From assembly GCA_019429005.1 (NCBI GenBank), contig JAHYJR010000005.1:54581-118580 (forward strand): DNA of 64,000 bases, read 5' to 3'. The DNA is from Nanobdellati archaeon (GTDB taxonomy: Archaea; EX4484-52; GLR71). The translations under genes and the position numbers were made by a program. A model generated the notes under the pieces. The model was not told where the DNA came from. It worked only from the letters and a program-made list of their open reading frames with translations, and did no database searches. This document shows positions 6,117-43,406 of this stretch, piece by piece (position 1 is the first letter of the stretch; each line of letters starts with the position of its first letter).

Positions 6117-6128
6117 TGGTGTTTTTTA

Positions 6129-6779: not shown

Positions 6780-6835
6780 TTGTATCTAATATGTTAAATA
6801 ATACGGTATGTATGTTAAATAATAATGGTGACCTG

Positions 6836-24791: not shown

Positions 24792-25025
24792 TTATTTTTC
24801 ATGTGCTTTTGTAGTTTTTCGCTTCTTGTTCAACGTCTCTAAATCATCTTTAAGTTCTTTTATCTCATCATTCAAATCCTTTTCTTCATTATTCATTTTT
24901 AATGATATGAGGGATAATTGTTTAAATTCAAATTTAATTGTGATTAGGTATAATAAAACAACAATGCATGTAATTACAATTGCTTCTTCAACAGGAAAAA
25001 ATATTCCTAAAAATGGTATATTCAT
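24792..25025 (-). CDS. Small single-TM coiled-coil protein (paralog 2)
   Basis: TM AIVITCIVVLLYLITI, then FEFKQL and heptad-like EEKDLNDEIKELKDDLETL. Start at ATG 25025 (the ORF track gives 25034). Confidence 0.75.
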   Translation of the reverse strand: MNIPFLGIFFPVEEAIVITCIVVLLYLITIKFEFKQLSLISLKMNNEEKDLNDEIKELKDDLETLNKKRKTTKAHEK

Positions 25026-25039
25026 ATAAATCAATCCAT

Positions 25040-25240
25040 CTATTTTTTCTTGAATGTATCAAGTTCTTCTCTTAATTCTGTAATATTTTGTTTAAGTGCT
25101 GTTTCTTGATTATCATAATTTTTAACAATTTTGATAATCTCTTTGAATTCATATTCAAGTATGACTATATATAGGACTAATACGACAAAAAACATCGTAA
25201 TTAAATCCAATAAGTCAACACTGAAACCAAATATATACAT
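25040..25240 (-). CDS. Small single-TM coiled-coil protein (paralog 1)
   Basis: TM LITMFFVVLVLYIVIL, then YEFKEI and QETALKQNITELREELDTF. Aligns by eye with the neighbouring small ORF. Confidence 0.75.
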   Translation of the reverse strand: MYIFGFSVDLLDLITMFFVVLVLYIVILEYEFKEIIKIVKNYDNQETALKQNITELREELDTFKKK

Positions 25241-25267
25241 ATTACATCAACATATCTTTTTTTAGGA

Positions 25268-28200
25268 TTATTGTTTAAAAGAATAATCCGTAGCTTGATT
25301 ACTTTTTGTTTTGATTATTCTTTTGTTTAGGTACACTGCTAAGAATCCACCTGCTAACAATAAGATTAATGTGTATAATGCATTTAATCCTGTTGATGCT
25401 TTAGCACCTGTAACATAAAACTGTCCGGTAGTTTCAGCGAGTGTTGTAAAATCTTCTTTGAATTTTATGTTTGCTATATACATTCCACTTGGTGCTGACA
25501 ATGGTATAATAAATTTCTCTGAAAATTCTGTTTTCTCAAGTGGTTCAAGATCTTCGAGTTGTTGTATGTTCAAGTGTATAAGTTCAAGGTCTTGTGTATA
25601 TATTTCACTTTCAATATATGGTTTTTCAATATTATCACCACCATTTATTATCAGTATTTCAAGATATCCTGGTGTTCCTGAATCATATTTACTATTTTTT
25701 GTATTTACAATGATTGTTGGATATGATTGTTTGTATATTATACTTATAGTTCTTAATCCTTCAGCTTCAATTGCTGGTATAATTATAGTTGAACTACTTT
25801 CACCACCAGTATATTCTAATTCGTTTCCAAATGCGTCTTTAACTTCAATTATTTTGTCGGCAGCTATGATTGTATTTAATTTAACATTTGTATATTCTTC
25901 TTTAGCTAAATTCTTCAAGAATATATCTGTTTTGATTTTAACTTGTTTATCTTCAAGTTTATCTATAACTTCAGTATTTCTATCAATAGTGATTACAGGT
26001 GGTGTTGTTACACCAATTGTATATAATCTAGATTCCATAGCGTATATAGTTGATTCCCATATAGCTTTTGTTCCATCTGTTGTTGTATCTACATCAAGAG
26101 ATTCTTCAAGTTTTTCTCCTTTTACATTATAATAACTTGCATATACATTAAGTGTATCTTCAAATATTGATGTTGTAAATGTTGCTACTGTTGATCTTTG
26201 ATTAGGGTTGTATACTTCAAAGTCTTTAATCCATAAAGCAGGAGTGCCTACAATTACAGATTTTGCAAGTTTAAAGTTCTCATTATCTATTATGTTTAAT
26301 GGTTCTAGACTTTTTGGGGTGTATACATTTACTACACCCATGTCCATAGTCTGTATGCTTTTACCTACAATTGGATCGAAAGCCGCAATCTCTACTGGGA
26401 GTGTATATATACCACCTTCTGAAATATTCATTTTATATCCTACTTGTATATAATCATCAGTTATATCCCATCCAGACGTCACATTTTTCCGATATTCCCA
26501 TACACTAACATTTAACCCATCACTAAGTGTTGTGTATCCCATAAATGCTAAGTAATAATCCGTACCATTAACAAGTACTTGTGAACCATTTTGTACATTT
26601 ACTTCATTGTTAATTATACTGAATGTGATATCTGCAGGGATGTAATCCATAAATCTGATATCATTAACTGTACCTGTGACACTTACATTGATTGTTGCAT
26701 TCACTATTGTTGGTGTACTTGAATCTGAAATCCATAATTCTTTATAACCACTTAAGGAATTCTGGCTTGCTGTCATTTGTAATGTTTGCTGGTATTCAGT
26801 TAAAGGTGTACCTGATTGTGATACAAGTGTGTTGTTTCCTACAAATGTAAATACTTCACCTTCTTGAGGTAATGGTTCTTGTGTTAATATGGCATATACT
26901 ACTTGTATGTCTTCACCTGTTGTTAAATCATGTTCGACAATACCGCCTGCAACATAACTTACATTACTCATGTTTGTTATCTGTACTGTTATTGTACCAT
27001 TGTTCCCATCACTAGATTGAACAACAGTTACTTCTAAACTGCCAGTTTCTTGTTTTAGTTCATAAGTTGTATTTAGGTATATTTGTATTGAACTTGAATT
27101 TATCGTTAAATTCCTATAATCTGATGCACCATCATAAGTCCAAGGTATTTGTGATATTATTGTTATGTTATCTGCATTAACTTGACTATCTGCATTACCT
27201 GTGTGTAATAATGTATCTGTAATAGATACAATCGTATCATTTATACCGGGTGGTAATATGTTTGTTGTTGCTTTTGTATTTACCATATCAATTTCATAAA
27301 GAGTTGGAAGTTGCATAGATGTATTTATCGTAGCAAGGTAGGTATATGTGTTTGTATCGTTCCATACGACAAACCAATCAAAAGATCCTGCCATATATGG
27401 TTTTGAATCATCTGTTGGTCCGTCTACATAACTTGTATAACTTTGGTCGCCTGACGCAAATAATGAATTCCAGGTTTCACTTAAGTTATAAGGTGTTACG
27501 GGTTGACCTGTTGTTGGATTAACAGAATATATCTGTGCTGTTGTAACATTGTATGTTAAATTTGAGCCAGTTGAAGATTCTGCAGTGTTTTTGAAAAATG
27601 ATCGAATTTTCCATGGTGTGGAACTAATAAGGTCAACACCTTCACGTACAGGACCTCTTGAAAATGTACCAGACACTTTAATCTGCGTCATAAGTTCTGT
27701 GTTATTGCTGTAAGTTGCACGTGCACCTATATCTGTAGCTTCACCATTTAGGTTTATTGCGTTATCACCACCTGGATAGTTTATACCACTTATAATTGTT
27801 GCATTGAATGATATTGTTATTGTTGTGTCTGCATCAATATCACCGTTCCATACTATACGGTCAATATGTGTATCTGTACCATCACTGTTTGATGGTGTTG
27901 AGACACCAGATGTTTCTGAAATTGTGCTTTCTGTAATATTTAATGAATCATTTAAATTTAATGTATTTTTATTGAATTCCATTGTAAGTGTAACATCTGT
28001 AAGATTTGCACCAGTTACAGCTGCATCATTTCGTATTGTGTATACGAAATACATTATGTTTGAACTAGAATCAATATTGCCTTCTGAATAAAGATCATCA
28101 CCACCTGCTGTATTTACTACAGTCATAGTAAGGTTTAGAGAGGGAGCCCAATCATAATCTGGAGTGTAGCTTAAATCATCATCTGTGTCATCACCATCTG

Positions 28201-28597
28201 TGGATGTGTTTAAGAACATTGTTGTTTTATCGGTTAATGCTGGATAAGAAAGAGCGTAATTTTTGTATGCTGTATATGAGCCACTGTATGAATCACTATT
28301 AAGAGTCCAAAGTTCAACATCAGCACGAGTGTTTGCTTCACTTGATAAGTTTACTCTAACGTATTGTAATACATCTTCTGTATTTGGAACATAAACATAA
28401 ACAGTACCTGTACGTGTTGTTGCACTTAAAGACCCATAACCTCCAGCACCACCTGCGCCAGCATCACCTGCAGTATATATAGGATCAGTTCCAGAAACAC
28501 TTTCAGTGATATACACTCGTGGCCCGTCTATACCTGAAACTGAGCCTATAATGAAATATAGACTAAGGAGAATAACTAATAATATTTTTTTATTCAT
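25268..28597 (-). CDS. 1109-aa secreted, C-terminally anchored multi-Ig-like surface protein
   Basis: Signal peptide, beta-rich modules including DUF11-like K...DYIP, and a C-terminal TM plus basic tail. Paralogous to both upstream genes. Confidence 0.8.
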   Translation of the reverse strand: MNKKILLVILLSLYFIIGSVSGIDGPRVYITESVSGTDPIYTAGDAGAGGAGGYGSLSATTRTGTVYVYVPNTEDVLQYVRVNLSSEANTRADVELWTLNSDSYSGSYTAYKNYALSYPALTDKTTMFLNTSTDGDDTDDDLSYTPDYDWAPSLNLTMTVVNTAGGDDLYSEGNIDSSSNIMYFVYTIRNDAAVTGANLTDVTLTMEFNKNTLNLNDSLNITESTISETSGVSTPSNSDGTDTHIDRIVWNGDIDADTTITISFNATIISGINYPGGDNAINLNGEATDIGARATYSNNTELMTQIKVSGTFSRGPVREGVDLISSTPWKIRSFFKNTAESSTGSNLTYNVTTAQIYSVNPTTGQPVTPYNLSETWNSLFASGDQSYTSYVDGPTDDSKPYMAGSFDWFVVWNDTNTYTYLATINTSMQLPTLYEIDMVNTKATTNILPPGINDTIVSITDTLLHTGNADSQVNADNITIISQIPWTYDGASDYRNLTINSSSIQIYLNTTYELKQETGSLEVTVVQSSDGNNGTITVQITNMSNVSYVAGGIVEHDLTTGEDIQVVYAILTQEPLPQEGEVFTFVGNNTLVSQSGTPLTEYQQTLQMTASQNSLSGYKELWISDSSTPTIVNATINVSVTGTVNDIRFMDYIPADITFSIINNEVNVQNGSQVLVNGTDYYLAFMGYTTLSDGLNVSVWEYRKNVTSGWDITDDYIQVGYKMNISEGGIYTLPVEIAAFDPIVGKSIQTMDMGVVNVYTPKSLEPLNIIDNENFKLAKSVIVGTPALWIKDFEVYNPNQRSTVATFTTSIFEDTLNVYASYYNVKGEKLEESLDVDTTTDGTKAIWESTIYAMESRLYTIGVTTPPVITIDRNTEVIDKLEDKQVKIKTDIFLKNLAKEEYTNVKLNTIIAADKIIEVKDAFGNELEYTGGESSSTIIIPAIEAEGLRTISIIYKQSYPTIIVNTKNSKYDSGTPGYLEILIINGGDNIEKPYIESEIYTQDLELIHLNIQQLEDLEPLEKTEFSEKFIIPLSAPSGMYIANIKFKEDFTTLAETTGQFYVTGAKASTGLNALYTLILLLAGGFLAVYLNKRIIKTKSNQATDYSFKQ

Positions 28598-28638
28598 ATT
28601 TAAGACCTGTATCGTTCAATAATTATTTGTTTTTCGTT

Positions 28639-28652
28639 ATTTATAAGTTTTG
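28639..28652 (-). promoter_or_regulatory. Putative BRE/TATA promoter for the 1109-aa gene
   Basis: The minus strand reads caaaacttataaat about 45 bp upstream of the ATG at 28597. Confidence 0.4.
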
Positions 28653-28768
28653 AATAATGACATTAAAGGGTACTTTTATTTGTATTTGATTTATGTTATT
28701 TTTATAAGGTATAAATTATTTATTTCATTTAGTTTATAATCATTTCGGTTATTTATATTTTAAACATT

Positions 28769-31700
28769 TTAATTATTTTTGAGATTATATGTCTTGATTA
28801 TTATTCTTAATGTCACGAGCCCTGTAAGAATTATTAATATTCCAAATCCCATTTTATATGTATCTGCAATTGTTTTTTTTTCAACCGTAAATGTTTCATA
28901 ATCAGAGCCTATAAGTTTTGTTTTAGAATATACTTTTGCAAATATTGTGTATGTTCCAGATAATATAGGTTTAAATAAAAGATTATCATATATGTTTATT
29001 TCCTTTTGACTTGTTATATTTTCAATTTTAATTATATCAGCATAAACTGTATTTAGTTTTTCACCATCTTTAAAACTCAATACTTCTACACTGATTGTAA
29101 TAGTTTTTTCATCATCTTGAGGCACATATAATATCTTATAATCTAAATCAGTTTCGTAAGTGAGATTTTCTAAATTAATTTGAAATATTCCTGGAACATC
29201 ATTATAGATAATATTTATTTGTTCTATCGAATTATTTTTTATATTAGGTATTGTTATAGTCATATCTTTATTGTTAGTTATGTATTCAAGTTGATTTCCA
29301 TTTGAATCAACTATATTTATAATGTTTAGAATTTGTGGATATACAAATTTAACATTATTATAATCAATAAGACTTGGATTCTTTAGGGATATTTCTGTAA
29401 GTAATTTCAGACTATTATCTACGTTTTCAAGAACTGTTGTATTTTCTTTTATACGTATTACGGGTGCGGTTGTTATTGTTATTGTATATTTTTGTGTCTC
29501 AAATTCTTTTATGACTAATTTCCATTCAGCAGTTATTTCATCATATTTTTTGATTGAATATAATACTTCTTTACCCTCTTCAGTTATGTCTATATTTAAG
29601 AAATCCTGCAAAAGTTGAGTTTCAATCAAATCACTTATTGTGAATTTATTAGGGTTGTATATCTCAAGAGTTTTTGTCCATATAAGGGGTATTCCAACAA
29701 TAATATTATCTACTTTAAATTCACTCTCATTTATTTCAAGTGGTTTTAATTCGTCAATTTCTTCAATGATTCGTACAGGTATATTTATGTTTGTATGTTG
29801 TGTCTCATTTGTATAAGGATTTTGCATAATTGCACGTATCATCAAATCATATGAACCAAATGGTAATGTTAAACCATAATCAACTTTTAGAAGATCATTA
29901 TCTTTCAATATTGGTTCTGTTACATAATTAGGGTTAAGATTAATGTAATATAATGTTTTATTTAATGAGTTATCTTCAATTTTTTTAATTGTTGTCTTAT
30001 CTATAGGTATCCATATACCTTGAGTTGAATCATATCTTGTGATTCGTATATCTGATTCATCAAACAGGATAACTTTTTGAGGGATGTCAAGAAGAACATT
30101 TATTTTATTTAAGCCTTTGTTCATAGCATTCAGATCTATAAGCCTATAGGTTCCAGTGATGTCAATTGTATTTGTATCTATAAATGAGACACCAACATCT
30201 TCTTTAACTAGTTCTATTATAGTATCAAAATCTATTGCAGGACTTCCCGCAGCTGCACCACCGCCACCGCCGGCAGAACCACCTTCAACAGGGGCTGTTA
30301 TTATAGCACCATACAATATTACAGTTTCATTATCATAAAGAGTTAGGGGTGTGCCCGAAATAGTTTTTGTTGTTATATTACTATTAAATAAAAAGGTATT
30401 CTGACCTGAATTTGGGTTTGTTGAGATATTATATGTAAGCATTATATCTTCATTTAATTTAAGATTGGTTATTGAAAAATTGGATAGATTATCTATATTT
30501 AGATACACATAACCATTACTTGATGCTGTCGGCATTACAATTGTTATTATGTCTGTGGTAATATTAAGCAATGTCTTGTTTCCTGTTGAATTAATATGGT
30601 ATACATAGATATCATTTTTATCAAGTGACGTCCAGCTATGTACAAAACCCTCAACAGATTTATGCGGTATTGTCGAATTGATATAAATTGATGCAATCTC
30701 AAGATTTTCATGACCCATATATGTAGTCGTTTTAATGACCGAAACAATATTTTCTGTAAGTTTATGTGTGGATGATTTTGAAAGGCTTATGTCTGCTTCA
30801 TAAAGTACTGGCATATCGATAAAACTTCTTGTAATTCCATAATAATTTGGACTACCCCATAATATTTCCCAATCAAATGCAGCACTGAAATATTTTTCAG
30901 TACTTTTATTTGTCTGATACCATCCTGTTTGAGTTAATTCTCCGGGGTTAAGAATGACTGCATCAGAACTTTCTAATAGTGGTGTTTCAATATCGGTTAC
31001 ATTATACAATCTCCAGCCATTTACAATATAATCCAATCCATTCGCAATATTTTTTATAAATCCTCTAACAAGTGTATTTTCTATAAATATAATATCAATA
31101 CCACTTTGTATTGGTCCTCTAGAAAAATGTTTTTGAACAGTTATATTTGTAAATGTAGGACCATAACTTATAGTCTCAACACAGGATGCACATACTAAAT
31201 CAAGAACATATAAATTTTCATCAAAATTGATGTTTGGTGTTATATTTGTATAGAATATGATACTTATTGGAACGTCTTCTTTCAGAGTACCCGTCCAATT
31301 TAATGTGTCATAAAAACTATCATTATCATAATCGTATAAATTGAGATTACCTGTTATTGTGCTTTGATTATATATGTTTAAACTATCATTTGTACCATAA
31401 TAATCAATCGGTATTTTTAATGTTAAAGAGACATTTTCAAGAGTTTTTGTGGAGTTTAAAGATAGGTTGAATATGAAAATATTCGTATCATCAGGATATA
31501 AATCAGACCCTCCTTTCGTGTTAAAATAATTAATTTTTAATTGTATAATTGGTATAATACTAGAATTTGTTATTTTATATGTAATGTCTAGAGGATTATT
31601 ATCTGTATTAAAAAATAATCTAGTCAAATCCCCTGTAGTTGGAGATGCTGCAACAGGTGCATATACAGTTTTTGAAAGTACGTTAGTATTACTAATCTCA

Positions 31701-31945
31701 TTATCTGAAATATTTAGTAATATGTATTGAAGGACATCTATAGTATTTGAGACTTCAACATCAATATAACCCTCGGCTGAAACATTATAAGCTACAGTTC
31801 CATTTGTATTATAATAATAAGTGACTTCTTCTTTAAGGTATGTTGCCGGATTATCTATTGCAGAAGCAGGGTATACACAAATAATTAGATAAATACATAT
31901 TATAAGAAGTATATTGAATTTGTTTTTATTTCGCAAATATTCCAC
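28769..31945 (-). CDS. 1058-aa secreted, C-terminally anchored surface protein, full-length paralog of the 1109-aa protein
   Basis: Shared motifs in the same order: DVLQY, GG.DLY, NDSLNI, FSRGP, P.LYE.D, SGTPLT, VG.P..W.K..E.YNPN. Gly-rich linker and C-terminal TM. Confidence 0.8.
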   Translation of the reverse strand: MEYLRNKNKFNILLIICIYLIICVYPASAIDNPATYLKEEVTYYYNTNGTVAYNVSAEGYIDVEVSNTIDVLQYILLNISDNEISNTNVLSKTVYAPVAASPTTGDLTRLFFNTDNNPLDITYKITNSSIIPIIQLKINYFNTKGGSDLYPDDTNIFIFNLSLNSTKTLENVSLTLKIPIDYYGTNDSLNIYNQSTITGNLNLYDYDNDSFYDTLNWTGTLKEDVPISIIFYTNITPNINFDENLYVLDLVCASCVETISYGPTFTNITVQKHFSRGPIQSGIDIIFIENTLVRGFIKNIANGLDYIVNGWRLYNVTDIETPLLESSDAVILNPGELTQTGWYQTNKSTEKYFSAAFDWEILWGSPNYYGITRSFIDMPVLYEADISLSKSSTHKLTENIVSVIKTTTYMGHENLEIASIYINSTIPHKSVEGFVHSWTSLDKNDIYVYHINSTGNKTLLNITTDIITIVMPTASSNGYVYLNIDNLSNFSITNLKLNEDIMLTYNISTNPNSGQNTFLFNSNITTKTISGTPLTLYDNETVILYGAIITAPVEGGSAGGGGGAAAGSPAIDFDTIIELVKEDVGVSFIDTNTIDITGTYRLIDLNAMNKGLNKINVLLDIPQKVILFDESDIRITRYDSTQGIWIPIDKTTIKKIEDNSLNKTLYYINLNPNYVTEPILKDNDLLKVDYGLTLPFGSYDLMIRAIMQNPYTNETQHTNINIPVRIIEEIDELKPLEINESEFKVDNIIVGIPLIWTKTLEIYNPNKFTISDLIETQLLQDFLNIDITEEGKEVLYSIKKYDEITAEWKLVIKEFETQKYTITITTAPVIRIKENTTVLENVDNSLKLLTEISLKNPSLIDYNNVKFVYPQILNIINIVDSNGNQLEYITNNKDMTITIPNIKNNSIEQINIIYNDVPGIFQINLENLTYETDLDYKILYVPQDDEKTITISVEVLSFKDGEKLNTVYADIIKIENITSQKEINIYDNLLFKPILSGTYTIFAKVYSKTKLIGSDYETFTVEKKTIADTYKMGFGILIILTGLVTLRIIIKTYNLKNN

Positions 31946-32068
31946 CTTATTATTATGTTTTTTAAATTATATGAATTCTCCTGTTTGTATATAAATTATA
32001 TTTTCAATTTTATTTTATGTTTTTTTTATTTAGGTTTTTATTGGACTATTGTTTGTATTATTTATCGT

Positions 32069-35000
32069 CTAATTTATTTTATTATTATTATTTGGATTAT
32101 TTGTTTTTTCATCATCTTTTTTGGATTTATAGCTTTGTTTCCATATTAAATAGATTATTGTGAGGAGGATAATAATATCTAAAATAAGAGATCTATCTAT
32201 ATCAAAAGAACCCGATTTATCTTTAACTTCTTTAGCATCTTTAACCTCGAAAGTTCGCGTTGATATGGCTTCTCGTCCGGTATAAGTTACAAATGCTTCA
32301 AATGTATACATACCTTTTTCTGTGCTTTCTGGAAGGTAAAGGCTTAATGTTCTTTCTTTTTTATCTACAACAGCAATGGTGTCTGTTGATTCTGTAATCA
32401 GTTTACCACTCATAGTTTTTATTGCATAATTTATAACAACATCAACTTTTGCTTTAGGACCACCCATATTTTCCATTGTTAATAGTGCCATAACAGGATT
32501 TCCAACTGTTACAGTTCTTGTGATAATGTCCACAATTATATCAAATAATGGTATATTAACATCTGTATACATCTCGGTTCTAATGTGTTGCTGATAACTT
32601 GGATCATAACCACCAATTATTGTTGGAAGTAACCATGAACCACCACCCAATATTGTTGCATTATAAATGATAGTAATTGTATCATTATTATATAATAATC
32701 CATCCCAATTTGTATAATTATATGTGAAATTATAATGGTAAATGTCAACAAGAACACCATCTGGTAATGTATCACTTCCAGGTGCACCTAGGTAATAATC
32801 CGAATCATTTAAGAATTGATACGTCTGATCTGTTGACGCATTATAATATGTGATATTCTTATTATTTATTGTTGCACTATTCGGCAAGAAATCTGCTATC
32901 AATATTTCACCCATTGGATTTAATCCGATTTCTTGTATTATTATTGTGACTGTTATATTCTGTGGATTTACAGGATTAATCCATATATATTTAGTACCTC
33001 GAAGCACAGCTTCAGACGCCATAATTGTTTTAGTTATATAACTTTCATTAATATTTTCATTTATATCAATAACAGACGCATTTGTATACATTGTCCTGTT
33101 TTCACCAGGTGTTAGTTTAGCTGAAACCATCAAATATTTAAATTCAATAGAATCATTTTCATCTAAACCAGAACCGATATTTGTCAGAGACATATTTGTT
33201 ATATTGACCTGTATCTGTGTATTGTTTGTTCCAATAAGATCAATAATTTCAATGTTTAATCCTGTTGTGATTTCTGTAATTTCAGCTGTTGTGTAGTTCT
33301 TGAAATTAACAGTTATACTTGTTGAGTTATAGAAATCATAAGGTATTTCATCAGTGATGTTTATTGAATATACTTCATTTTGTGTACTGTTTATTTTGAT
33401 TGTGGTTGTCACATTTATTGTCTCATTCTCGTCTGAGACGATGATGTCAGGTGATAATATTTTGGTTATCTGTGTTGAAATACTATTTTGAGTTTCATAT
33501 GTAAAATATAATATTTCAGTTGAATTCATATTTCCAGAAGTGTCGTTCGCATATACCTGCCACCTTATTGTCGCACCTACTGTTGAATTGACCCACTTAC
33601 TCACATTAGACCAGTTACCTGTTCCTGTCATGTTGACATAACTATCATTCACAAATGTTCCAGTTCCATTATCAAATGAAAATATGTATCCTGAAAGTGC
33701 ACTATCTGACCAGTAAAGGCTGAACAGGACATCAATCCCTGCACTTGTTGAGTCTGTCTGGTTAAGTGAATATAATGGTGCGGTTACATCTTTGATTGTA
33801 ATATTAACAGTTTCTGTAACATTATCTGTAATATAAGCACGGTATGTTGTCGCATTATAATCGACAAAAAATTCCCAAGTTGTATCTCCTAGACCTGTAG
33901 CATTCACAGTCCAATTATTGGTACATTCATCACCTGCACGCATATCAGATAAACAATTAGAATATAGTCCATCTTGTGGATTATCGGATGTTGTATAAAA
34001 TGGTCTTGCACCAACAGTCATAGAAATAACTTTTGTAGTTACATCAAAGGTCCATGAACTAAATGTGGTATTACCATCACCATCTCCTGCAAGGATACTG
34101 ACATTCCATGTACCAATCATATCTATTACATAATACGATGAATTCCAATATGTAGTCCAGAGTGAACTGTTATAATACATTGTTCCATTTTCATTATTTA
34201 TTACTTTTGTGCCTAAGGGATTTATCAATGTGAAATTAACCCATTCAATACCGGGTCTATTATAATCACTGACAATTGTATTTATCGTGATATTATTCCC
34301 ACCTATTGGCTGGTATGGATATGTCTGATTAGTTTCTATTACCGGTGGTGCATAAGCAAGGTCTGTAACTGTTCCATACCACCCCCATTGACTATTAATA
34401 TATGTTGAATCTGGTAGTGTTATGACCTTAAAATAATTACTATCATTAGTTTTCCAACAAGAGACCCATTCAGTTTCTGCAAAATAATCTATATTACCAT
34501 AAGTCCGTCCATCTGTTTTATTGCAGATGATTGAATCATAATCTACAATACCAAGATTTACGGCTGTAGAGCCACCTGTTATATGATTTCGGATATTAGT
34601 TGCTGTACCACTTCCCCAACCACCATAAGGTGCTGAACTATCTCCAAAGGTCATATCACCCAATAGTGAATCATGGTTTGCTGTTATTTTATTGTCAAGA
34701 TCATAGAATGCTCCATTTACAAATAATTCTGCATGCATTGTATCTCCAATCCTAATTGGATCTTCCCATAGAATTTTAATTTCATTATAATATCCTAATG
34801 AATTAAACGCAGTTATTGTTGCATTATATTCTATAGTTAATGCATCATGAACAATCCATGTCCCAATCCATTGTCCTTCATAAATAGTACCGTCTGTTAA
34901 ATTTAATGTGATTGTTTCAATCCCACCCATATCAATAGTCATTAATACAATTCCTTGTGAGTCTTTAGCACGAATATCAAAATGCATTGTATCATTATTG

Positions 35001-38000
35001 ATTACACTTTTAGGCCATAATTTAGTATCAATAAATACAGGTCCAATTGATTCTGTTTTATCTTCTTTTTGTTCAGGATCTAAAGTCGCATTAAATTGTC
35101 CGCATTCACCATCAAGACAAGTTATTTTACTTTCAAATGTAAAAAACTCATTTTGAGATACATTTGTCGGTATTGTAGGGGTTACTAATTCTACATTTAT
35201 ATGTCCCCATGGCACAAACCACGAGGTTTGGTTAGACTTAGAAACTGTGTCATCATTTATACACGTTCCAGTTATATTCCATTGACCTGAATCCGTTATA
35301 TTAATCCCAGAAGGTAATGTATATATCCACCAATCTCCATCTGTAGATGTTGCATTATTTGCGTTTAAAAATGTGGTATCATCAATTATATTTTTTACAA
35401 GGTATGTTGCATTTGTGATATATTGTCCACCGTCAGCAGTACAGTTCACTCTAATTTGAGTTATATTTTCATAATATGAATAATTACAAATACCCCATTC
35501 AGAACTGCTATTATAACATTCAACAGCCCCTATTATTGGTTCTGAACTGACAGATATTATTGTGCTATTTTCTCCAGTAATACTATCTTCATCTGTAATA
35601 TTTGTTTTAATTATGTATGCCCCATTTGAAGTTGGTGCATTAAAGGTTATGTTGTAATATCCAATATAATTTGTTCTGGGACCATATTCAATTGCAAATG
35701 TAATATTATTTATTTCAGCAGTCTGCCATATATTATCTGTCGTAAAATTAATACGATATTGTAGGGTATTATCAATACCAAGACCACATCCCGACTCAAG
35801 AAGTGTATCATTATAAACTTCACACCAGCTAACATTATTTTCTGTTGATACAAAAACAGTAAAATTTGTTCCTGTTGGTATTGTTGCATACCACACAGGT
35901 TTCACAGTCAAAAGTGTTCCGGGTATATATACTAAATCCGAATCATAAGTACCATTTTCATTATATTGGATTGTATATTTTACAGTTATATTGGTTGGAT
36001 AATAATCATCATTCAGTGCATATGCACTATGTGTTATACGTGTCACTTTACTATTTTTTTCAGGATTTCCAGCATTATCTATAGTCTCTTCAAGAACATC
36101 ATTCACATATATTGTCCACGTTGTACCATCAAATAATACATTGACTTTATATTCTGTATTATCACTGATAACAACGCCAGTATCAATAGAATATGCTGTA
36201 TTTCTAACATCACTAAATGAGGGATTACAGATCCCATCATAAACATATAAATGATTATTGCCTTCATAACGATATATTGTAAATATACCCAGATTACAAC
36301 CTTCAGTACCTACAAATGTTACAATTCTTGAATGTCTGTCCAAGAATGATGATTTTGTCTGAAATAAGGAATAATTGAAATAAAAGGTATAATTTATAGT
36401 ATCTGGAGGTGTTTCAAAATCATGATAAAAACCATTATTTGGAACATTATATGTTGAGATACCCCAATCACTTTTTGCATATGCGGTAAAAATATTCTTA
36501 TCTACATCCGGGCCGAATTCACCGCTAACTAAGGTCTCTATGTATGGATACATCATATGACTGGTAGCTAATTGATCTGCCGTATTATTCATTGTCTGGT
36601 TTTGAACATATGTGCCAGATACCCAATACGTACTGTTTTTCCAATCATAAGATGCGGTGTTATTCATCAGACTATCATTCAAATATACATTAACTCTTTG
36701 ATCTATAACAGCATTTGTTGAACCTTCATATAGTGCAAACCCTGAAACAAATACATCTTCATTAGCTGCATAAATGAGTTTATTCGGATTTAAACTGATT
36801 GTGATATTATCTGAATTGAAAAAGTGATGGTGTGTCGCTTCTGTATTGATGTTTCCAATTGTATCGTTACATTTATACCAAAAGTTATAAGCTATCTTAT
36901 TTGAGATACTAGTATAATTATATGCGTGTGTTATTGTTTCCTGTCCAATTTCAAAATCAGTTCCTGTACCATATTCAAAGTCACTTATTGTATCGTTCCA
37001 TTGACAATTTGCATTTGTATCTGTTGTGATGTTTAACCAGATCCATGTATTTTCAGTGTATATGTTTGAATCATTATTTGGGTATACGATAGTTATTATT
37101 GGTGGAAATATGTCTGTCATTATATTTGGTTGTGGGAATATTCCAGAATGTATTGTAGGCATCCATAAATTAAGCGTACTATAATCGCCTTTTGTAAAAA
37201 CAAGAAGATAATTTATTTCATCTGTTGAACTTGCAGATGTTGGATTATATTCAAGGCGTAAGCCTTCATTATCATTTGTTGAATCGTTCCAAAATCCAAC
37301 AGTACTTATCGTTATATTTTCGGATTCATTAAATCTGACTAAAGATATAAAGCTTGTATTTGTTGAATCTTCTGTTATTGAATTGTCAAATATCAATGAA
37401 TAATTGCTGATAAGCATACTATAATCAGTCCATTGGTCTGTTGGTAAATCGGTTATAAGTCCCGTAGAACCATTTTCAAGTGCATAATTATCATCAATAG
37501 CAGAAGAACCCAAAGTTCCAGTAATGATTGGGAATAGTGAATTTATATTTGTTATATTTTCATCAAAGTTATGTATCCTATAGTTAAGATAATCAGATGT
37601 ACTATTAATAATTTTTACAGTGATATTAAATGTGGTTGTATAAACTGTAGTGATTTTTGAACGTATCATAAACTCATTACCCCCTGATTGAACTTCCCAA
37701 CCTGAACCAAAATCAAAATAACTGTTAGTAGGTGGTGAAGCAGCACCATCATCAAGGAAAAAGGGTCCACCTGTAACGGAATCTCCTGTATTTTCTGTAA
37801 GTTCAACACCTATCCAGAAATTACCTGATGTTATTTCAATATTATATGAAGATAGGTCAATTGTCGCCCAATTAGAATAAAAAGAAGTAATTGTTGTATT
37901 GAATGGCTGTATCAAATTATTTCCTGGCACGCCTTCATTATCTTCATAGATATGTATAATATATACTGTTGATCCAACTGTATTTATATCATAAAGTTGA

Positions 38001-41000
38001 ATATTTGTACTCATAATTTTATAAGGGTAATTCGTTGTGGATGCTGTGAACTTACATGCAATTGTATCTCCAATAAATCTATTTGTATAAAATGATGACG
38101 CTGCACCATCATCATTTTGTAATGTCTCTTCTGTTGGACTATCTGGTACAAAACGATATTCTATTTGCATATCTAGTTCAATTTCAGCTAAATTTTCACC
38201 TTCTTGTGAAAATGTCTTAGATGTATATTTAGAAGTGACCATATTGTTTATTACAATATCACCTAATCCAAATAATGTATTATCTGAAAGTGTTTCAATA
38301 TTATATGATTCATTTAATTCTTTATTTTCCAAAAAGATGATAGCTTGTGTTGTATTTATAGTTCCATTATATACAATTATTAGATTTTCGCCTTCAATAA
38401 TATAATCCTCCGTATTATCAGCATCATAATCTAATTTATATGCTGAAACATTTGATCCTGAATAAATGTGTATTGTGGTGTTCTCAATTAAAGAACCATA
38501 AGGATTTGTTGCGTTAATTTTTATAGTATAAATTCCAGGTGCGTCTGTTATTTGAGATGTCCAATTACCATAATATCTACTTGAACCACTACCACTATAA
38601 GTGAGATTTATCGTATTAACAATGTCATCTGTATTATTAATTATACTTAAAATAACATCTCCGTCTGTAACATTTCCTGCTTGATTTGTAACTTTTGTAT
38701 CTATGAAAATTGTATCATTTATTGTAAAAAGTTTATCTAAATATAGGTAGTTTGAATCTCTATAAGTTTCAATAATTATATTTGTTGGTAGTGGAGATAC
38801 AACGTCAATTTCTATGTTTGGGTATGGGTCATCATAATCAATATAACCTTGTGTGTCATTAACCCAAGAAGTATTTACTGATAAGGTCCCACCTGTTGAT
38901 CCTACATTGAGTACAACACCATAAATACTTCCACCCGAACCACAAACTCCTGTTGAATTTGATGTAGATATATTTGATGATGTTCCATTTGGATATTTTA
39001 TTTCAATCCATGTGCTGCTTATTGGATATGATTCAATCGTTATGGTGTGGTTTATACAAATTTCAGTATTTATACTTACTGTTGTTGCATTAACTGTAGT
39101 TTGATTTGTTTTTGGTTTTATATTGACTGTTATTGGACTATTAACTGTATTTCCTGTAGTAGTACATTTTTTTGTAACTGAATCATCGCATGCAAATGCA
39201 TACCAATTTTGTGCACCTGAACCTGTACTTACCCAAGTACAAGTATTTTCAGAACCATCTGCAACTGTGGATGACGACACACAATATGCACCACCATCAC
39301 AAGTTGGGGGTAATCCACCAGTAACTGCATCGGTTTTACATATGGCTAAGTACCAAGTATCACCATTTATATCTGTTGCTGTTGCGTTAAATGTAACTGT
39401 ATTTCCAAGTAGTACAGGATCTGGATTGTCTTTGGGAGTTACAGTAAAAACTGGCGGTGCTGGTGCTGCATCAATCCACCAAATGTTTGTTGTAATTTTA
39501 TTTTGTTTATTTAAAATCCCAGTTTGTAATGTTAATATCACTGGTGCATTATACCATTCAGATGTATGGGTCACATTTAACGTATAATTCATCTGATACT
39601 GTTGTCCATCTAAAAAATAACTTTCATTCCATCTTGTCCTTGCAAACAGTTCATCTGGTCTATCCCATAATTCAAAAGATCGTGTTGTTAGGTTATCTTG
39701 ATTAATAAGTAAAGAAAGTGCTGGGTCTGAAATATTATACGATTCTAATCCTGATGTTAATGATAATTCTAAAGTATCATTTTCATAAGTTGTATTTATG
39801 CGTATATTGTAATTTATGACTGTTATTTCAGATTCACTATATTCATTGTTACCTACATTTGTAATTGTTGGTGTTACAAGAATCTCTCTCCAATCTGTTT
39901 CAAGGTAATATTCTAATGCAATCTCAATTCTATTGTTTTTATCTTTGAATGTTGTAAATCCTGTCAAGTTTGTATATGTTATATTATCTGTTGTTGCAAT
40001 CCATTCCCATGTGCCATCATCAATACAATATTGATACCATACTGTTGATTTTAATCTTGCACAATAACTTGTGTATCCCCAATATGCATATTGATCGTTT
40101 GTTATCTGAAAACCATTTGTTAGGTTGACATAATAACTATCGTATGTATTCCAAAGATGATATATACTCTCTACATATTCATATCCTATATCTGTTGTCG
40201 GATCAATATTTACAGGGTATGCTCTTAATGGGTCATTCAACCACATATAAGGTGTTTTTATGGTTATAAATATAGAATTACCTTGTTTTTTAAGTTGATA
40301 TTTTAACTCTGTGTAATCATATTCATTGTCGTAAGCATACGGTTTTTGCATGTAGAATAATGTATTTTCTGTGTTTTGTTCTTTGAACAAAATCTTTTTT
40401 GTAGTTTCAATTGTGCTTTTTTTATCCCATAATGCGTCGTTGATATAAATATCTAAATTTGCAGTATAATCAATAAGAAAATCCATATCAAGTGTAATGT
40501 TATTTCCTGCCAGAACATCTGGATGCGGTTGCGTTGGTTTTTGGTCTAGTATCAAATTCTTTTCTAACTTATCTGTTTTTACTGTATATGTAAGATTGTA
40601 ATTGTTTCCAAAAATGTTAGGATATACAAATGTATCACCTTGTTCAACACCTATAATTGGTTGTGTCTTATTTATCTCTTGAGTGTATCCATCTGAATTT
40701 CTATAGTTTAATGATATCGGCTGGTATGTAACATAACCTTCAGCAGGATTGGTTTTATTTATTGTTTCTTGACTAAATTTAAATTTAATTGCATCTAAAT
40801 TTAGAGGGTCTTGTTTAAAATATGTCTTATGTGTATTGTTTTCAACACCATAATCATATTCTAGTTCATCTTGTGGTTCTGAAGTTATCATCGTATTTGC
40901 TGTAATATATTCAGTTCTATTATAATAATTTTTTAGTTTGCCTATGTATGTTGTGTATGTCCCATCTCGGTTTTCAAATTTATCAAAGTTTTGACCACGT

Positions 41001-42493
41001 TGAGATACGGTTTCTTTAGTTTTTTTTTCAGTTTGAACTTCGGTTTTAGTTTGATTTTCGGAGTCGTTCAAATTAATCATATTCAAAATGATACTTGAAC
41101 TATTAATCATAGTTCTATCAAAACTATAGACTTTGATTGTAACTTCATTTTCTCCAGAAGTATAATTTATAGGTACAGTCCATTTGTATTCCCATAAATC
41201 CTCAGAGCTCATTTCTAATTCTATATCTTTTCCGTCTATGGAAAGTATTGTTTTTTTAATAATTTGGCTATTTCCTAATGCATAAAATGAAATCGTTTCA
41301 CCTTGATTTATTTCCGTTTTATTTGTGTATAGGTTTATGTTTGCAGGTTTATTTTCATATTGTATTTCTAAGAAAATGCTGTTTATGTTAATGCCTTTTT
41401 GTTTTAGATTATTATCTGAATCTTGTGTTTGATTTATCGTTTCATTGTTTGGTTGAACTTGTGTTGTTTTTGTAGATTCTTTATTATTTATAACATTATT
41501 TTCTTCAGTTGTATTCATCTCATCTGAAGTTATATTTTGTTCTGTGCTTGTGTTTACTTCAGAATTATTAACTGTATTATTTTCCATATCGATTTGTTCA
41601 TCTGTACTATTATTTTGAGCTACATTAGCGTTTGTTATGTTTTCAATATTTGTAATGTTATCTATAATTTCTAGATTTTTCGTGTTGGTTATATTTTTGT
41701 TAGTTTCATTTGAAGAGTCCGTCGTTGTATTTGTTTTGTTATTTATTGTATTTTCAATATTCAGATTGTCATTTGTATCATTTTCGTTTTCAAGATTATT
41801 ATGTATTGTAATATTTTCATTTGATTCATTCAAGGGTTCAATTCCAATTATGTTTTCATCAATACTATCGTTTAAGCTACTGTTTTGTTTATCTTTATTT
41901 GTTATTCCATTTAACGTTTCATTTGTTTGTTCTGTGTCATCTGTTCTTAGCACATTACCTGTTATCAAATTAGCACTTTCTTTTTTTTGCACGAATTCAA
42001 TACGTATTGTTGCATCGTCAATGTTTTGTATTGCTTGTATATGTGTAGATAAATCACATATAGATTGTTGTGGTTTTGTTGGTACTTCAAAATTACAAAT
42101 ATGTATATATGTTCCATTTATTTGATAATATATATTGCCATCTTGCTTAATGTCAGAATACCAATCTAGCACCAGGTTTAATCCTATTATATTAACAAGA
42201 TTTTGATTTTTATCTGAGAACGAGAATTCAATATATGAAACAGAATCATTTAGGCAGTCGTTTTGTGTTAGGAGTATGTCTTTTATTAATAATTGACGGT
42301 TTGGATTATTGTCATTGTTACATATCATAATATTTTGTGGACTTAATTGGTATTCTTGTCCTGTATTTGATGCTAATAAATAACCTGTAAGATTCGTAAT
42401 TGGACCCATTAAAACTAATAATAATAAGAATATTAGGAGAATGCTGATGCTGGCATAAATTCTATATTTCGTGTCGATATCTAGATTATACAC
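32069..42493 (-). CDS. Giant 3474-aa mosaic surface protein
   Basis: N-terminal hydrophobic segment with LTG/ITG motifs, N/T/E low-complexity linker, YPVNIDPT module, Cys module, many Ig-like and lectin-like modules, C-terminal modules shared with the 1109-aa protein, and a C-terminal TM. Confidence 0.85.
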   Translation of the reverse strand: MYNLDIDTKYRIYASISILLIFLLLLVLMGPITNLTGYLLASNTGQEYQLSPQNIMICNNDNNPNRQLLIKDILLTQNDCLNDSVSYIEFSFSDKNQNLVNIIGLNLVLDWYSDIKQDGNIYYQINGTYIHICNFEVPTKPQQSICDLSTHIQAIQNIDDATIRIEFVQKKESANLITGNVLRTDDTEQTNETLNGITNKDKQNSSLNDSIDENIIGIEPLNESNENITIHNNLENENDTNDNLNIENTINNKTNTTTDSSNETNKNITNTKNLEIIDNITNIENITNANVAQNNSTDEQIDMENNTVNNSEVNTSTEQNITSDEMNTTEENNVINNKESTKTTQVQPNNETINQTQDSDNNLKQKGININSIFLEIQYENKPANINLYTNKTEINQGETISFYALGNSQIIKKTILSIDGKDIELEMSSEDLWEYKWTVPINYTSGENEVTIKVYSFDRTMINSSSIILNMINLNDSENQTKTEVQTEKKTKETVSQRGQNFDKFENRDGTYTTYIGKLKNYYNRTEYITANTMITSEPQDELEYDYGVENNTHKTYFKQDPLNLDAIKFKFSQETINKTNPAEGYVTYQPISLNYRNSDGYTQEINKTQPIIGVEQGDTFVYPNIFGNNYNLTYTVKTDKLEKNLILDQKPTQPHPDVLAGNNITLDMDFLIDYTANLDIYINDALWDKKSTIETTKKILFKEQNTENTLFYMQKPYAYDNEYDYTELKYQLKKQGNSIFITIKTPYMWLNDPLRAYPVNIDPTTDIGYEYVESIYHLWNTYDSYYVNLTNGFQITNDQYAYWGYTSYCARLKSTVWYQYCIDDGTWEWIATTDNITYTNLTGFTTFKDKNNRIEIALEYYLETDWREILVTPTITNVGNNEYSESEITVINYNIRINTTYENDTLELSLTSGLESYNISDPALSLLINQDNLTTRSFELWDRPDELFARTRWNESYFLDGQQYQMNYTLNVTHTSEWYNAPVILTLQTGILNKQNKITTNIWWIDAAPAPPVFTVTPKDNPDPVLLGNTVTFNATATDINGDTWYLAICKTDAVTGGLPPTCDGGAYCVSSSTVADGSENTCTWVSTGSGAQNWYAFACDDSVTKKCTTTGNTVNSPITVNIKPKTNQTTVNATTVSINTEICINHTITIESYPISSTWIEIKYPNGTSSNISTSNSTGVCGSGGSIYGVVLNVGSTGGTLSVNTSWVNDTQGYIDYDDPYPNIEIDVVSPLPTNIIIETYRDSNYLYLDKLFTINDTIFIDTKVTNQAGNVTDGDVILSIINNTDDIVNTINLTYSGSGSSRYYGNWTSQITDAPGIYTIKINATNPYGSLIENTTIHIYSGSNVSAYKLDYDADNTEDYIIEGENLIIVYNGTINTTQAIIFLENKELNESYNIETLSDNTLFGLGDIVINNMVTSKYTSKTFSQEGENLAEIELDMQIEYRFVPDSPTEETLQNDDGAASSFYTNRFIGDTIACKFTASTTNYPYKIMSTNIQLYDINTVGSTVYIIHIYEDNEGVPGNNLIQPFNTTITSFYSNWATIDLSSYNIEITSGNFWIGVELTENTGDSVTGGPFFLDDGAASPPTNSYFDFGSGWEVQSGGNEFMIRSKITTVYTTTFNITVKIINSTSDYLNYRIHNFDENITNINSLFPIITGTLGSSAIDDNYALENGSTGLITDLPTDQWTDYSMLISNYSLIFDNSITEDSTNTSFISLVRFNESENITISTVGFWNDSTNDNEGLRLEYNPTSASSTDEINYLLVFTKGDYSTLNLWMPTIHSGIFPQPNIMTDIFPPIITIVYPNNDSNIYTENTWIWLNITTDTNANCQWNDTISDFEYGTGTDFEIGQETITHAYNYTSISNKIAYNFWYKCNDTIGNINTEATHHHFFNSDNITISLNPNKLIYAANEDVFVSGFALYEGSTNAVIDQRVNVYLNDSLMNNTASYDWKNSTYWVSGTYVQNQTMNNTADQLATSHMMYPYIETLVSGEFGPDVDKNIFTAYAKSDWGISTYNVPNNGFYHDFETPPDTINYTFYFNYSLFQTKSSFLDRHSRIVTFVGTEGCNLGIFTIYRYEGNNHLYVYDGICNPSFSDVRNTAYSIDTGVVISDNTEYKVNVLFDGTTWTIYVNDVLEETIDNAGNPEKNSKVTRITHSAYALNDDYYPTNITVKYTIQYNENGTYDSDLVYIPGTLLTVKPVWYATIPTGTNFTVFVSTENNVSWCEVYNDTLLESGCGLGIDNTLQYRINFTTDNIWQTAEINNITFAIEYGPRTNYIGYYNITFNAPTSNGAYIIKTNITDEDSITGENSTIISVSSEPIIGAVECYNSSSEWGICNYSYYENITQIRVNCTADGGQYITNATYLVKNIIDDTTFLNANNATSTDGDWWIYTLPSGINITDSGQWNITGTCINDDTVSKSNQTSWFVPWGHINVELVTPTIPTNVSQNEFFTFESKITCLDGECGQFNATLDPEQKEDKTESIGPVFIDTKLWPKSVINNDTMHFDIRAKDSQGIVLMTIDMGGIETITLNLTDGTIYEGQWIGTWIVHDALTIEYNATITAFNSLGYYNEIKILWEDPIRIGDTMHAELFVNGAFYDLDNKITANHDSLLGDMTFGDSSAPYGGWGSGTATNIRNHITGGSTAVNLGIVDYDSIICNKTDGRTYGNIDYFAETEWVSCWKTNDSNYFKVITLPDSTYINSQWGWYGTVTDLAYAPPVIETNQTYPYQPIGGNNITINTIVSDYNRPGIEWVNFTLINPLGTKVINNENGTMYYNSSLWTTYWNSSYYVIDMIGTWNVSILAGDGDGNTTFSSWTFDVTTKVISMTVGARPFYTTSDNPQDGLYSNCLSDMRAGDECTNNWTVNATGLGDTTWEFFVDYNATTYRAYITDNVTETVNITIKDVTAPLYSLNQTDSTSAGIDVLFSLYWSDSALSGYIFSFDNGTGTFVNDSYVNMTGTGNWSNVSKWVNSTVGATIRWQVYANDTSGNMNSTEILYFTYETQNSISTQITKILSPDIIVSDENETINVTTTIKINSTQNEVYSINITDEIPYDFYNSTSITVNFKNYTTAEITEITTGLNIEIIDLIGTNNTQIQVNITNMSLTNIGSGLDENDSIEFKYLMVSAKLTPGENRTMYTNASVIDINENINESYITKTIMASEAVLRGTKYIWINPVNPQNITVTIIIQEIGLNPMGEILIADFLPNSATINNKNITYYNASTDQTYQFLNDSDYYLGAPGSDTLPDGVLVDIYHYNFTYNYTNWDGLLYNNDTITIIYNATILGGGSWLLPTIIGGYDPSYQQHIRTEMYTDVNIPLFDIIVDIITRTVTVGNPVMALLTMENMGGPKAKVDVVINYAIKTMSGKLITESTDTIAVVDKKERTLSLYLPESTEKGMYTFEAFVTYTGREAISTRTFEVKDAKEVKDKSGSFDIDRSLILDIIILLTIIYLIWKQSYKSKKDDEKTNNPNNNNKIN

Positions 42494-43196: not shown

Positions 43197-43258
43197 ATAT
43201 TACATATTAATATATTATATTACATATATTAATAAATTATATTACATATTAATATATT
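43197..43258. repeat. Three tandem 20-22 bp units (atattacatattaatatatt)
   Basis: Units 1 and 3 are identical; unit 2 has a 2-bp insertion and one substitution. Confidence 0.7.
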
Positions 43259-43406
43259 ATATAAGGTGTGATTTTATTTTAATCTGTTATAATTTATGGT
43301 ATTTAATTAAAACCTATAATTATTATGTTAATCTGTTTCAATCTATTTTGATTTAAGATATGTCTATAAAAATAAACTATTAATATTTAGGAAAGTAAAA
43401 AATTGT

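Follow-up and report, generated by a model that had tools for sequence, protein, structure and literature searches.

Archaeal surface layers (S-layers) are among the closest described counterparts of the system reported here, which consists of five co-directional open reading frames (ORFs), named P3, P2, P1, P4 and P5, on the minus strand at positions 24792-42493 of a 64,000-nucleotide stretch of DNA from a Nanobdellati archaeon (assembly GCA_019429005.1, contig JAHYJR010000005.1, positions 54,581 to 118,580). The whole stretch is referred to as the window. In the two-protein SlaA/SlaB system of Sulfolobales, a membrane-anchored stalk protein carries the canopy and has a coiled coil in its anchoring part. 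The S-layer protein csg of Haloferax volcanii is lipid-anchored after processing, and we know of no obligate small partner with a transmembrane (TM) helix and a coiled coil for csg or for the S-layer protein SLP of Nitrosopumilus maritimus. The available portion of a 2024 survey by Johnston et al. (10.1101/2024.05.28.596244) lists lipidation, TM helices, membrane-binding domains and co-expressed accessory proteins as means by which archaeal S-layers are anchored. It assigns the S-layer proteins of Aenigmatarchaeota to the MSTP-like beta-sandwich class, orthologous to those of methanogens. S-layer genes in most Aenigmarchaeota bins are also mentioned, without names, in the accessible text of Li et al. 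(PMC8407114). The generic S-layer profile, as given in the available part of another study (10.1101/2021.04.28.441871), is that of a secreted protein of 40-200 kDa with an isoelectric point (pI) of 4-6, few sulphur amino acids and glycosylation sites.

The five genes are a conserved module, found lineage-wide in Aenigmatarchaeota-type DPANN archaea. Our preferred interpretation, to which we assign a probability of roughly 0.4, is that P1 and P2 form an S-layer-like scaffold of anchored glycoproteins, that P3 plugs a giant head into it, and that P4 and P5, the small proteins, act from the cytoplasmic side to organise the anchors. In the direction of reading, the ORFs are P3 (32069..42493; 3474 amino acids, aa), P2 (28769..31945; 1058 aa from a GTG start), P1 (25268..28597; 1109 aa), P4 (25040..25240; 66 aa) and P5 (24792..25034; 80 aa from a TTG, or 77 aa from an ATG at 25025). 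They are separated by 123 bp (P3-P2), 171 bp (P2-P1), 27 bp (P1-P4) and 5-14 bp (P4-P5). An earlier note on this DNA had placed all five ORFs at these coordinates and the small genes at gaps of at most 27 bp, as measured here, and every motif that it quoted is present in the translations. At 31934-31946, the GTG given as the start of P2 falls within a Shine-Dalgarno-like GGTGG word; an in-frame TTG three codons further on (31936-31934), 5 nt past GGTGG, is the more likely start and would give a protein of 1055 aa.

The paralogy within the set is far above chance. In BLASTP searches, P1 and P2 aligned almost end to end as two blocks, with E-values of 1e-32 (residues 21-602) and 1e-25 (714-973) and 28-31% identity. 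Residues 521-788 of P1 matched residues 3079-3335 of P3 (3e-13, 27% identity), and P4 matched P5 (1e-9). The end-to-end alignment of P1 and P2, the P1 modules in the membrane-proximal part of P3 and the paralogy of the two small proteins, all noticed in the earlier note, are thereby confirmed, and P2 is an ancient paralogue of P1. None of P1-P5 matched Pfam at E<=0.01, and NCBIfam gave nothing above noise, with zero families for P1, P2 and P3 at E<=0.1. A search of PDB sequences gave nothing for P1 and one chance match (E 0.13) for P3, while profile A2 retrieved from the same database only leucine-zipper-like rows with E>=0.026. Among 19 family members scanned against Pfam at E<=1, weak matches were found to bMG10 (4/19), DUF7927 (3/19) and Big_5 (1/19). 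A protein atlas placed P4 next to unnamed clusters at a best score of 0.88, which offers no lead.

P1 is the best-conserved member of the gene set. Its predicted Sec-type signal peptide is followed by about seven beta-sandwich domains, and a TM helix at ~1070-1088 with a basic tail of ~20 aa completes the chain. Its ectodomain (115 kDa, pI 4.13) contains 0 Cys and 17 Met, and P1 carries 29 N-x-S/T sequons. P2 likewise has a signal peptide, a C-terminal TM helix (1032-1050) and 31 sequons. Sequon density in P1, P2 and P3 is 2.6-4.5 per 100 aa, as against 0.2-1.7 in eight of nine other proteins of the window; the ninth, an unannotated protein of 674 aa beside pilus-type genes, has 2.5. A search of 1.84 billion representative proteins yielded 107 relatives of P1 at E<=1e-3 and 68 at E<=1e-30. 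The named ones are each a 'hypothetical protein' of DPANN metagenome bins, and the nearest relatives are 66-68% identical to P1. Mean identity to the window residue is 39% for P1 across 33 orthologues and 29% for P2, which fits the major subunit and minor paralogue suggested in the earlier note. P1 is conserved over its full length (0.30-0.53 mean identity per domain), most strongly in the two membrane-proximal domains (0.50-0.53). This whole-length conservation is unlike that of an adhesin with a variable tip.

Structure prediction agrees with the earlier description of P1 as a protein of immunoglobulin (Ig)-like modules. An AlphaFold2 model of whole P1, built from 19 sequences, has a predicted local distance difference test (pLDDT) score of 72; apart from the signal peptide and the C-terminal helix, it shows beta structure throughout. 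Its Foldseek matches are generic Ig-like or beta-sandwich arrays, with the S-layer chains 8c8o and 7ptp among the 50 matches listed. The N-terminal head (residues 22-445, 27263..28534, minus strand), which contains the DVLQY and FSRGP motifs and consists of several sandwiches, was modelled from a 70-row alignment with a pLDDT of 90.4 and a predicted template-modelling score of 0.86, which indicates a compact unit. Its best Foldseek matches in the PDB are integrin alpha legs and mu-homology domains, at 7-13% identity and with template-modelling scores of at most 0.35 normalised to the query and 0.54 normalised to the target; no solved structure close to the head was present among the 50 matches listed. 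The integrin alpha legs (thigh and calf) come first, with E-values of 2.6e-8 to 1e-6. Integrin alpha chains share the plan of P1 in their beta-sandwich legs, single TM helix and short cytoplasmic tail, and a giant protein found in relatives of the window organism (see below) starts with a beta-propeller. However, the template-modelling scores against integrin alpha are at most 0.22, lengths are mismatched and identity is 7-10%; the likeness is one of architecture and is not evidence of kinship. Downstream of the head, the stalk module at residues 521-788 (26234..27037, minus strand) is the part held in common with P3. Two antisense ORFs lie inside P1, at 25458-26132 (plus strand, 224 aa) and 26208-26453 (plus strand, 81 aa), and similar ones occur in 25 loci. 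Their recurrence seems only to mirror the conservation of P1 itself in AT-rich DNA and does not count as evidence of genes.

Conservation of the set was studied by scanning one genome per species. This yielded 52 loci in 44 assemblies, in which ORFs were called and searched with the window proteins. Twenty of the 52 loci are labelled Candidatus Aenigmatarchaeota; the remainder are recorded as uncultured archaeon, Nanohal(o)archaeota, Nanoarchaeota, Undinarchaeota or under a few unlikely names. The scan contained 38 P1-type genes of at least 700 aa, of which 31 were followed by at least 300 bp and could be assessed for a small gene. A homologue of P4/P5 lay directly 3' of P1 in 28 of these 31, at gaps of -4 to 51 bp, and in 13 cases the gap was zero or the genes overlapped. 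The exceptions are L005, L051 and L015, the last of which has a split P1, with the small gene 474 bp further on. Directly upstream of P1, a P2-type gene was present in 17 of the 25 loci with room for it, at gaps between orthologous P2 and P1 genes of 14 to 720 bp. Both types occurred in 29 of the 44 assemblies, as judged from the stretches fetched. A protein with the C-terminal module of P3 stood directly upstream of P2 in 7 of 24 loci, a count from a single-sequence phmmer search that may miss distant examples. Outside the core of P2, P1 and two small genes there was no synteny, even with the closest relatives (L001-L003). The co-occurrence in other genomes that the earlier note had put forward as a check was thus found for P2, P1 and a small gene, and less often for a P3-type gene.

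A FastTree phylogeny of 69 full-length proteins divided 36 P1-type from 33 P2-type sequences by one branch with a support of 100; long branches were flagged for L030, L035, L036 and L042. The same lineages occur in both halves of the tree, which implies that the duplication that gave rise to P1 and P2 predates the lineage split. In the window itself, the 171-bp spacer between P2 and P1 (28598..28768, minus strand) is AT-rich and contains a TATA-like CTTATAAATA at 28638-28647, 41-50 nt 5' of the ATG of P1. The earlier note had read this as a TATA box of P1's own, which is unconfirmed because the spacer is so AT-rich that chance suffices to explain the word.

Comparison with described S-layer proteins brings out a likeness in plan and a difference in sequence. 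As in csg (7ptp) and N. maritimus SLP (8c8o), a signal peptide is followed in P1 by a chain of beta-sandwiches and a C-terminal membrane attachment, and the ectodomain is acidic, poor in Cys and rich in N-glycosylation sequons. P1 has the generic S-layer profile, whose loose criteria many surface proteins share. In contrast, there is no sequence similarity between P1 and either protein, the Foldseek template-modelling scores of 0.06-0.12 correspond to a generic likeness between Ig arrays, and lattice formation by P1 is hypothetical. No search revealed a sequence relation to SlaA or SlaB; the coiled coil of SlaB is extracellular and part of a large protein, whereas here it forms a separate protein of ~70 aa and is predicted to be cytoplasmic. 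The Methanococcales-type S_layer_N and S_layer_C models likewise had no Pfam match.

Like P1, the MSTP-like S-layer proteins (Methanosarcina class) are beta-sandwich surface proteins, and they are described from the same phylum. P1 and P2 might accordingly be diverged members of this class (DUF1608/TIGR01567), namely those modelled for Aenigmatarchaeota in the 2024 survey. The available part of the survey names this phylum among those with newly identified beta-sandwich S-layer proteins (10.1101/2024.05.28.596244), and P1 is all-beta. Nevertheless, we consider this explanation highly improbable. No S-layer model of Pfam (E<=0.01) or NCBIfam (E<=0.1), including PF07752 and TIGR01567, matched P1-P3, and no S-layer family was among the nine families matched by 19 members at E<=1. 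The family profile A1 gave one match in PDB sequences, at E 1.2, and none below. No entry with the MSTP tile fold was present among the best 50 of at least 500 Foldseek matches for either the whole-P1 or the head model. By contrast, the S-layer protein of Micrarchaeum is recognised by MSTP-type domain models, according to the available part of its description (10.1101/2021.04.28.441871). Hence, none of the characterised S-layer families against which the earlier note wished its reading to be checked matches these proteins, and on this count the reading stands. In the accessible portions of the literature on S-layers of DPANN archaea and Aenigmatarchaeota, on HerA proteins and on attachment (including PMC12175726, PMC11420986 and PMC13195033), we found no description of the cluster.

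P3 differs from P1 and P2 in its size and in how its conservation is distributed. By hydropathy, it has a signal-anchor-like N-terminus, a sequon-rich ectodomain of ~3400 aa, a TM helix at 3432-3450 and a tail of 24 aa; its 157 sequons amount to 4.5 per 100 aa. The C-terminal stalk-and-anchor module (~2980-3465; 32099..33556, minus strand), part of which is paralogous to P1 521-788, is 38-47% identical to eight proteins of 511-1668 aa from other loci (E 4e-56 to 1e-113). Seven of these relatives span the region from ~2980/3005 to 3415-3465, and one covers 3159-3465 only. Among proteins from other loci, the module also matches those of P1 type (2e-8 to 3e-19). The N-terminal ~3000 aa, in contrast, had no Pfam match at E<=5, no internal repeat and no relative in the 52 loci. 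The heads of P3-type proteins elsewhere are different again, with a NosD beta-helix in L029 and DUF2341 in L027. From these comparisons, the pattern is one of exchangeable heads on a stalk and anchor that are conserved. This suits the variable head on shared modules that the earlier note proposed; the varied adhesin-like modules that it saw in the first ~3000 aa find no support in these searches. Between P3 and a divergent transglutaminase-like gene (43407-45506) lies a 913-bp AT-rich gap (42494-43406), which may be a regulatory region for the giant P3 gene. At 43191-43262 this gap holds a 30-nt AT-rich repeat in three overlapping copies that start 20-22 nt apart and that also make up a 32-nt imperfect inverted repeat.

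An alternative is that P1-P3 are independent anchored surface glycoproteins or adhesins, which arose by tandem duplication and domain shuffling and are linked only by co-regulation, with the small proteins as an unrelated membrane factor and no assembly in common. We consider this explanation improbable. Several observations point towards it: proteins with beta-sandwiches and a C-terminal TM helix are common in the window (a giant of 3134 aa and a DUF11-like protein of 476 aa, described below), and the make-up of the cluster varies, with P2 standing apart from P1 in 8 of 25 loci and only 7 of 24 showing a P3-type gene. The protein atlas, furthermore, places P1 nearest to clusters of DUF11/CARDB/NPCBM_assoc surface proteins, at scores of 0.80-0.83 that lie below the 0.9 level and serve as a lead only; the CARDB, DUF11 and NPCBM_assoc domain models themselves had no match in P1-P3. 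However, the pairing of P1 with a small gene in 28 of 31 cases, often with overlapping stop and start codons, is maintained across lineages that are only 35-40% identical, and both paralogue clades have been retained since before the lineage split. Moreover, the flanking genes are not conserved even in the nearest relatives, whereas the core of P2, P1 and two small genes is.

The small proteins have a simple and strongly conserved architecture. An alignment of 28 homologues consists of a nearly invariant N-terminal stub of ~12 residues (MYIFG) with acidic charges only, one TM helix with an invariant E-F at its end, an R/K-rich run, and L/I/M/F residues spaced alternately by 3 and 4 positions across about five heptads, ending ~40 residues past the TM helix. 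By the positive-inside rule, the acidic stub and the R/K run after the TM helix make an N-out/C-in orientation most likely, with the coiled coil in the cytoplasm; an extracellular anchoring role is therefore unlikely. At E<=1e-3 the family numbers 215 members, and 21 of the 120 homologues listed bear the automatic label 'PulM' from the Joint Genome Institute (JGI). GspM/PulM is likewise bitopic with a helix after the TM segment. The small protein, however, is only ~70 aa long, does not have the periplasmic domain of GspM and has the opposite predicted orientation. P4 and P5 had no Pfam match at E<=0.01, GspM/PulM (T2SSM) included, and T2SSM was not among the 25 Pfam families most matched by 28 members at E<=1, so we rejected the label.

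Of the 30 loci with a small gene, just 8 contain two and the others one. The P4/P5 pair is thus a lineage-specific duplication. The small membrane-anchoring heterodimer envisaged in the earlier note is therefore not upheld, given also the probable cytoplasmic position of the coiled coil. In seven two-gene loci (L001:15184-15678, L002:13611-14090, L003:13407-13886, L006:13479-13892, L007:3757-4152, L008:9043-9483 and L011:3914-4345), the P5-type proteins are 131-164 aa long and have a low-complexity tail rich in K/D/E/S that ends in LK.MLD. P5 of the window stops after ~77 aa and has neither the long charged tail nor this motif. A complex prediction for residues 960-1109 of P1 with the small protein, made with alignments, returned a score of 0.00; controls were not run, and the result speaks neither for nor against binding.

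Clustering of all ORFs in the loci revealed a sixth partner, a protein family of ~2950-3070 aa that is absent from the window and was outside the view of the earlier note. In relatives, the conserved set includes this sixth gene. In 19 of the 26 loci with room for it, the giant gene begins 37-1409 bp downstream of the small gene. It lies elsewhere in five of the seven exceptions and is present in 28 of 52 loci overall (L013:13733-22603, L039:9089-18037, L016:13442-22414 and 25 further loci). In the nearest relatives it is positioned divergently upstream of P2, the place held by P3 in the window. The giants have a signal peptide, an N-terminal beta-propeller with weak matches to FG-GAP, PQQ_2 and Beta-prop, a sequon density of 3.7-5.2 per 100 aa and a single TM helix at ~2560-2700. 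They also have a DUF87/HerA domain (PF01935) that is predicted to be cytoplasmic and scored 37-43 bits against a cut-off of 23.2 in all three giants scanned. The Walker A motif G[AS]TG[AS]GKS is intact in 12 of 12 giants and is followed by VFDEVHRL. NCBIfam gave weak matches to CedD, CedB, HerA, TraC and VirB4 (19-39 bits against cut-offs of 325-970), and the giants also weakly match HerA helicases in the PDB. It is unusual for a giant surface protein to carry an FtsK/HerA-type motor on its inner end.

This partner raises the main alternative, in which the five genes encode not a coat but the extracellular arm of an ATP-driven trans-envelope apparatus for contact or transfer, built with the HerA-tailed giant, which the window organism would encode elsewhere or have lost. 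We regard this alternative as somewhat unlikely. The position of the giant gene after the small gene argues for it, as does the combination in one protein of a surface ectodomain, one TM helix and a DUF87/HerA domain above its cut-off with an intact Walker A motif. The coiled coil of the small protein is predicted to lie on the cytoplasmic side, where the ATPase would be. Furthermore, the disordered tail of P5 orthologues ends in a conserved LK.MLD, the sort of motif by which proteins dock on partners in the cytoplasm, and the membrane-proximal sandwich of the giant resembles that of P3. Against it, an HMM (hidden Markov model) of the giant family with default filters found nothing in the window, and no HerA domain occurs in the window ORFs. 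With filters off, only the last sandwich and TM helix of P3 (3316-3454; 27 bits, to the membrane-proximal part of the family) and the 476-aa protein (21 bits) were retrieved. A search with the L003 giant gave 23 proteins, none from P1's own contig, in a weak, word-limited test. Moreover, P5 of the window does not have the tail motif, any cargo is purely hypothetical, and adjacency alone is weak evidence of binding. A more specific version, in which three stalk glycoproteins are coupled through the ~70-aa coiled-coil protein to the giant's HerA/FtsK-type ATPase for ATP-driven contact with, or uptake from, a host, appears unlikely.

Among described machines, the archaeal Ced system and VirB4/TraC of type IV secretion resemble the module of the relatives in having a membrane-tethered HerA-type ATPase beside small membrane proteins and large surface proteins. 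They differ in that the ATPase of the giant is fused behind an ectodomain of ~2600 aa and is absent from the window. We know of no Ced/VirB4/TraC-type system with such a fusion. The available parts of two papers by Makarova et al. (PMC6393860, PMC5898192) describe another predicted secretion system, which has MoxR, vWA and DUF4350 proteins. We rejected this arCOG01314-associated system as a candidate: DUF4350, a MoxR-type AAA+ ATPase and vWA are absent from the annotated ORFs of the window. The 3134-aa giant of the window was also rejected as a counterpart of the HerA giant, with a best BLASTP E-value of 0.33 and no HMM match.

The scaffold interpretation is preferred because P1 is conserved over its whole length, both paralogues are retained, P1 and the small gene are tightly coupled, and P1 has the generic properties of an S-layer protein. 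From the observed paralogy, architecture, conservation and synteny we infer the following arrangement. P1 and P2 would be Sec-exported, heavily N-glycosylated type-I membrane proteins, each with a compact multi-sandwich head, a stalk of Ig-like beta-sandwich domains and one C-terminal helix in the membrane. Standing side by side and associating through their conserved domains, they would build an S-layer-like coat or fence, with P1 as the main and P2 as the minor subunit. The stalk and anchor of P3, comprising its paralogue of P1 521-788, the terminal sandwich and the TM helix, would display a lineage-specific head of 3000 aa from the same scaffold. P4 and P5 would be N-out/C-in bitopic proteins whose five-heptad coiled coils project into the cytoplasm, where they may bundle or organise the anchors at the inner membrane face. 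The tight linkage of the small genes to P1, often with overlap of its stop codon, would provide for synthesis at a fixed ratio. In relatives, the small proteins may in addition link the anchors with the ATPase that the neighbouring giant carries in the cytoplasm. The envelope structure proposed in the earlier note is partly supported.

A number of observations weigh against the scaffold interpretation. All contacts between the proteins are inferred. The TM helix and tail are the least conserved part of P1 (0.19), which speaks against a specific contact between TM helices of P1 and the small protein. P2 does not adjoin P1 in 8 of 25 loci; of these eight, three assemblies hold P2 on another contig, and L041 has it on the opposite strand of the same locus. 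The complete-chromosome locus L027 has P3 and P2 with no P1 nearby. The codon adaptation of P1 (0.645) lies inside the range of 0.59-0.75 of other window genes and thus gives no hint of high expression; this is a weak test, and codon bias in this genome is weak and strand-dependent. The Aenigmatarchaeota S-layer in the available part of the 2024 survey is MSTP-like and P1 is unmatched, so the real S-layer may be another protein. Finally, a plain S-layer leaves two features unexplained, namely the conserved cytoplasmic coiled coil and the presence, behind the small gene in 19 of 26 relatives, of a giant with a HerA ATPase.

The window represents an archaeal chromosome of ~30% G+C with an even GC content. 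It also encodes replication factor C (RFC) subunits, split RNA polymerase subunits and the ribosomal proteins S12 and S7. A mobile element or island was ruled out by these neighbours, together with tRNAs, a 5S rRNA and the even GC content. Rfam gave tRNA matches at 47906-48073 (168 nt), 50938-51059 (122 nt) and 52175-52232 (58 nt), of which the last, with 29.2 bits, is just over the gathering score of 29; ARAGORN found none of the three. The two long matches, far above the size of a standard tRNA, probably carry introns. A lone 5S rRNA gene (51776-51890) lies between the tRNA matches.

Further surface-related genes are present in the window. On the plus strand, 2320-9350 holds a set of type IV pilus or archaellum type, with a T2SSE ATPase that ends in PilB3_C and a pair of T2SSF membrane proteins. 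Three unannotated ORFs come next, among them that of the 674-aa protein with 2.5 sequons per 100 aa; they may encode pilins or pilus-associated surface proteins. The second giant surface protein (11328-20732, minus strand; 3134 aa) carries 136 sequons. Besides a signal peptide, it has three stretches of CarboxypepD_reg and, at 3005-3023, a TM helix; it has no repeats in common with P3 and no similarity to it at 1e-4. Its start overlaps by 4 bp with a 68-aa ORF (20729-20935, minus strand) that has weak helix-turn-helix matches below the Pfam cut-offs. The unannotated 476-aa protein (49437-50867, plus strand) has a weak DUF11 match (E 2.5e-4), and its 21-bit match falls in the membrane-proximal beta-sandwich region of the giant family of relatives. 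It is another member of the surface-protein domain pool.

The general view of DPANN archaea is that they live attached to other cells. To our knowledge, almost nothing is known of their surface molecules, and no member of the Aenigmatarchaeota has a described envelope. The genes reported here provide a defined, phylum-wide set for testing, with two families of anchored glycoproteins of ~1100 aa, a plug-in stalk module and a conserved membrane partner of ~70 aa, none of which is represented in Pfam or NCBIfam. If the coat interpretation is true, they would constitute a class of S-layer that the families tested here do not include. If the interpretation with the HerA giant is true, they would belong to a new kind of trans-envelope apparatus, a candidate for holding on to hosts or drawing from them. 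Either way, the profiles A1, A2 and A3 could annotate hundreds of 'hypothetical' proteins, and the gene set probably builds part of the cell coat or of the host-contact surface of these archaea.

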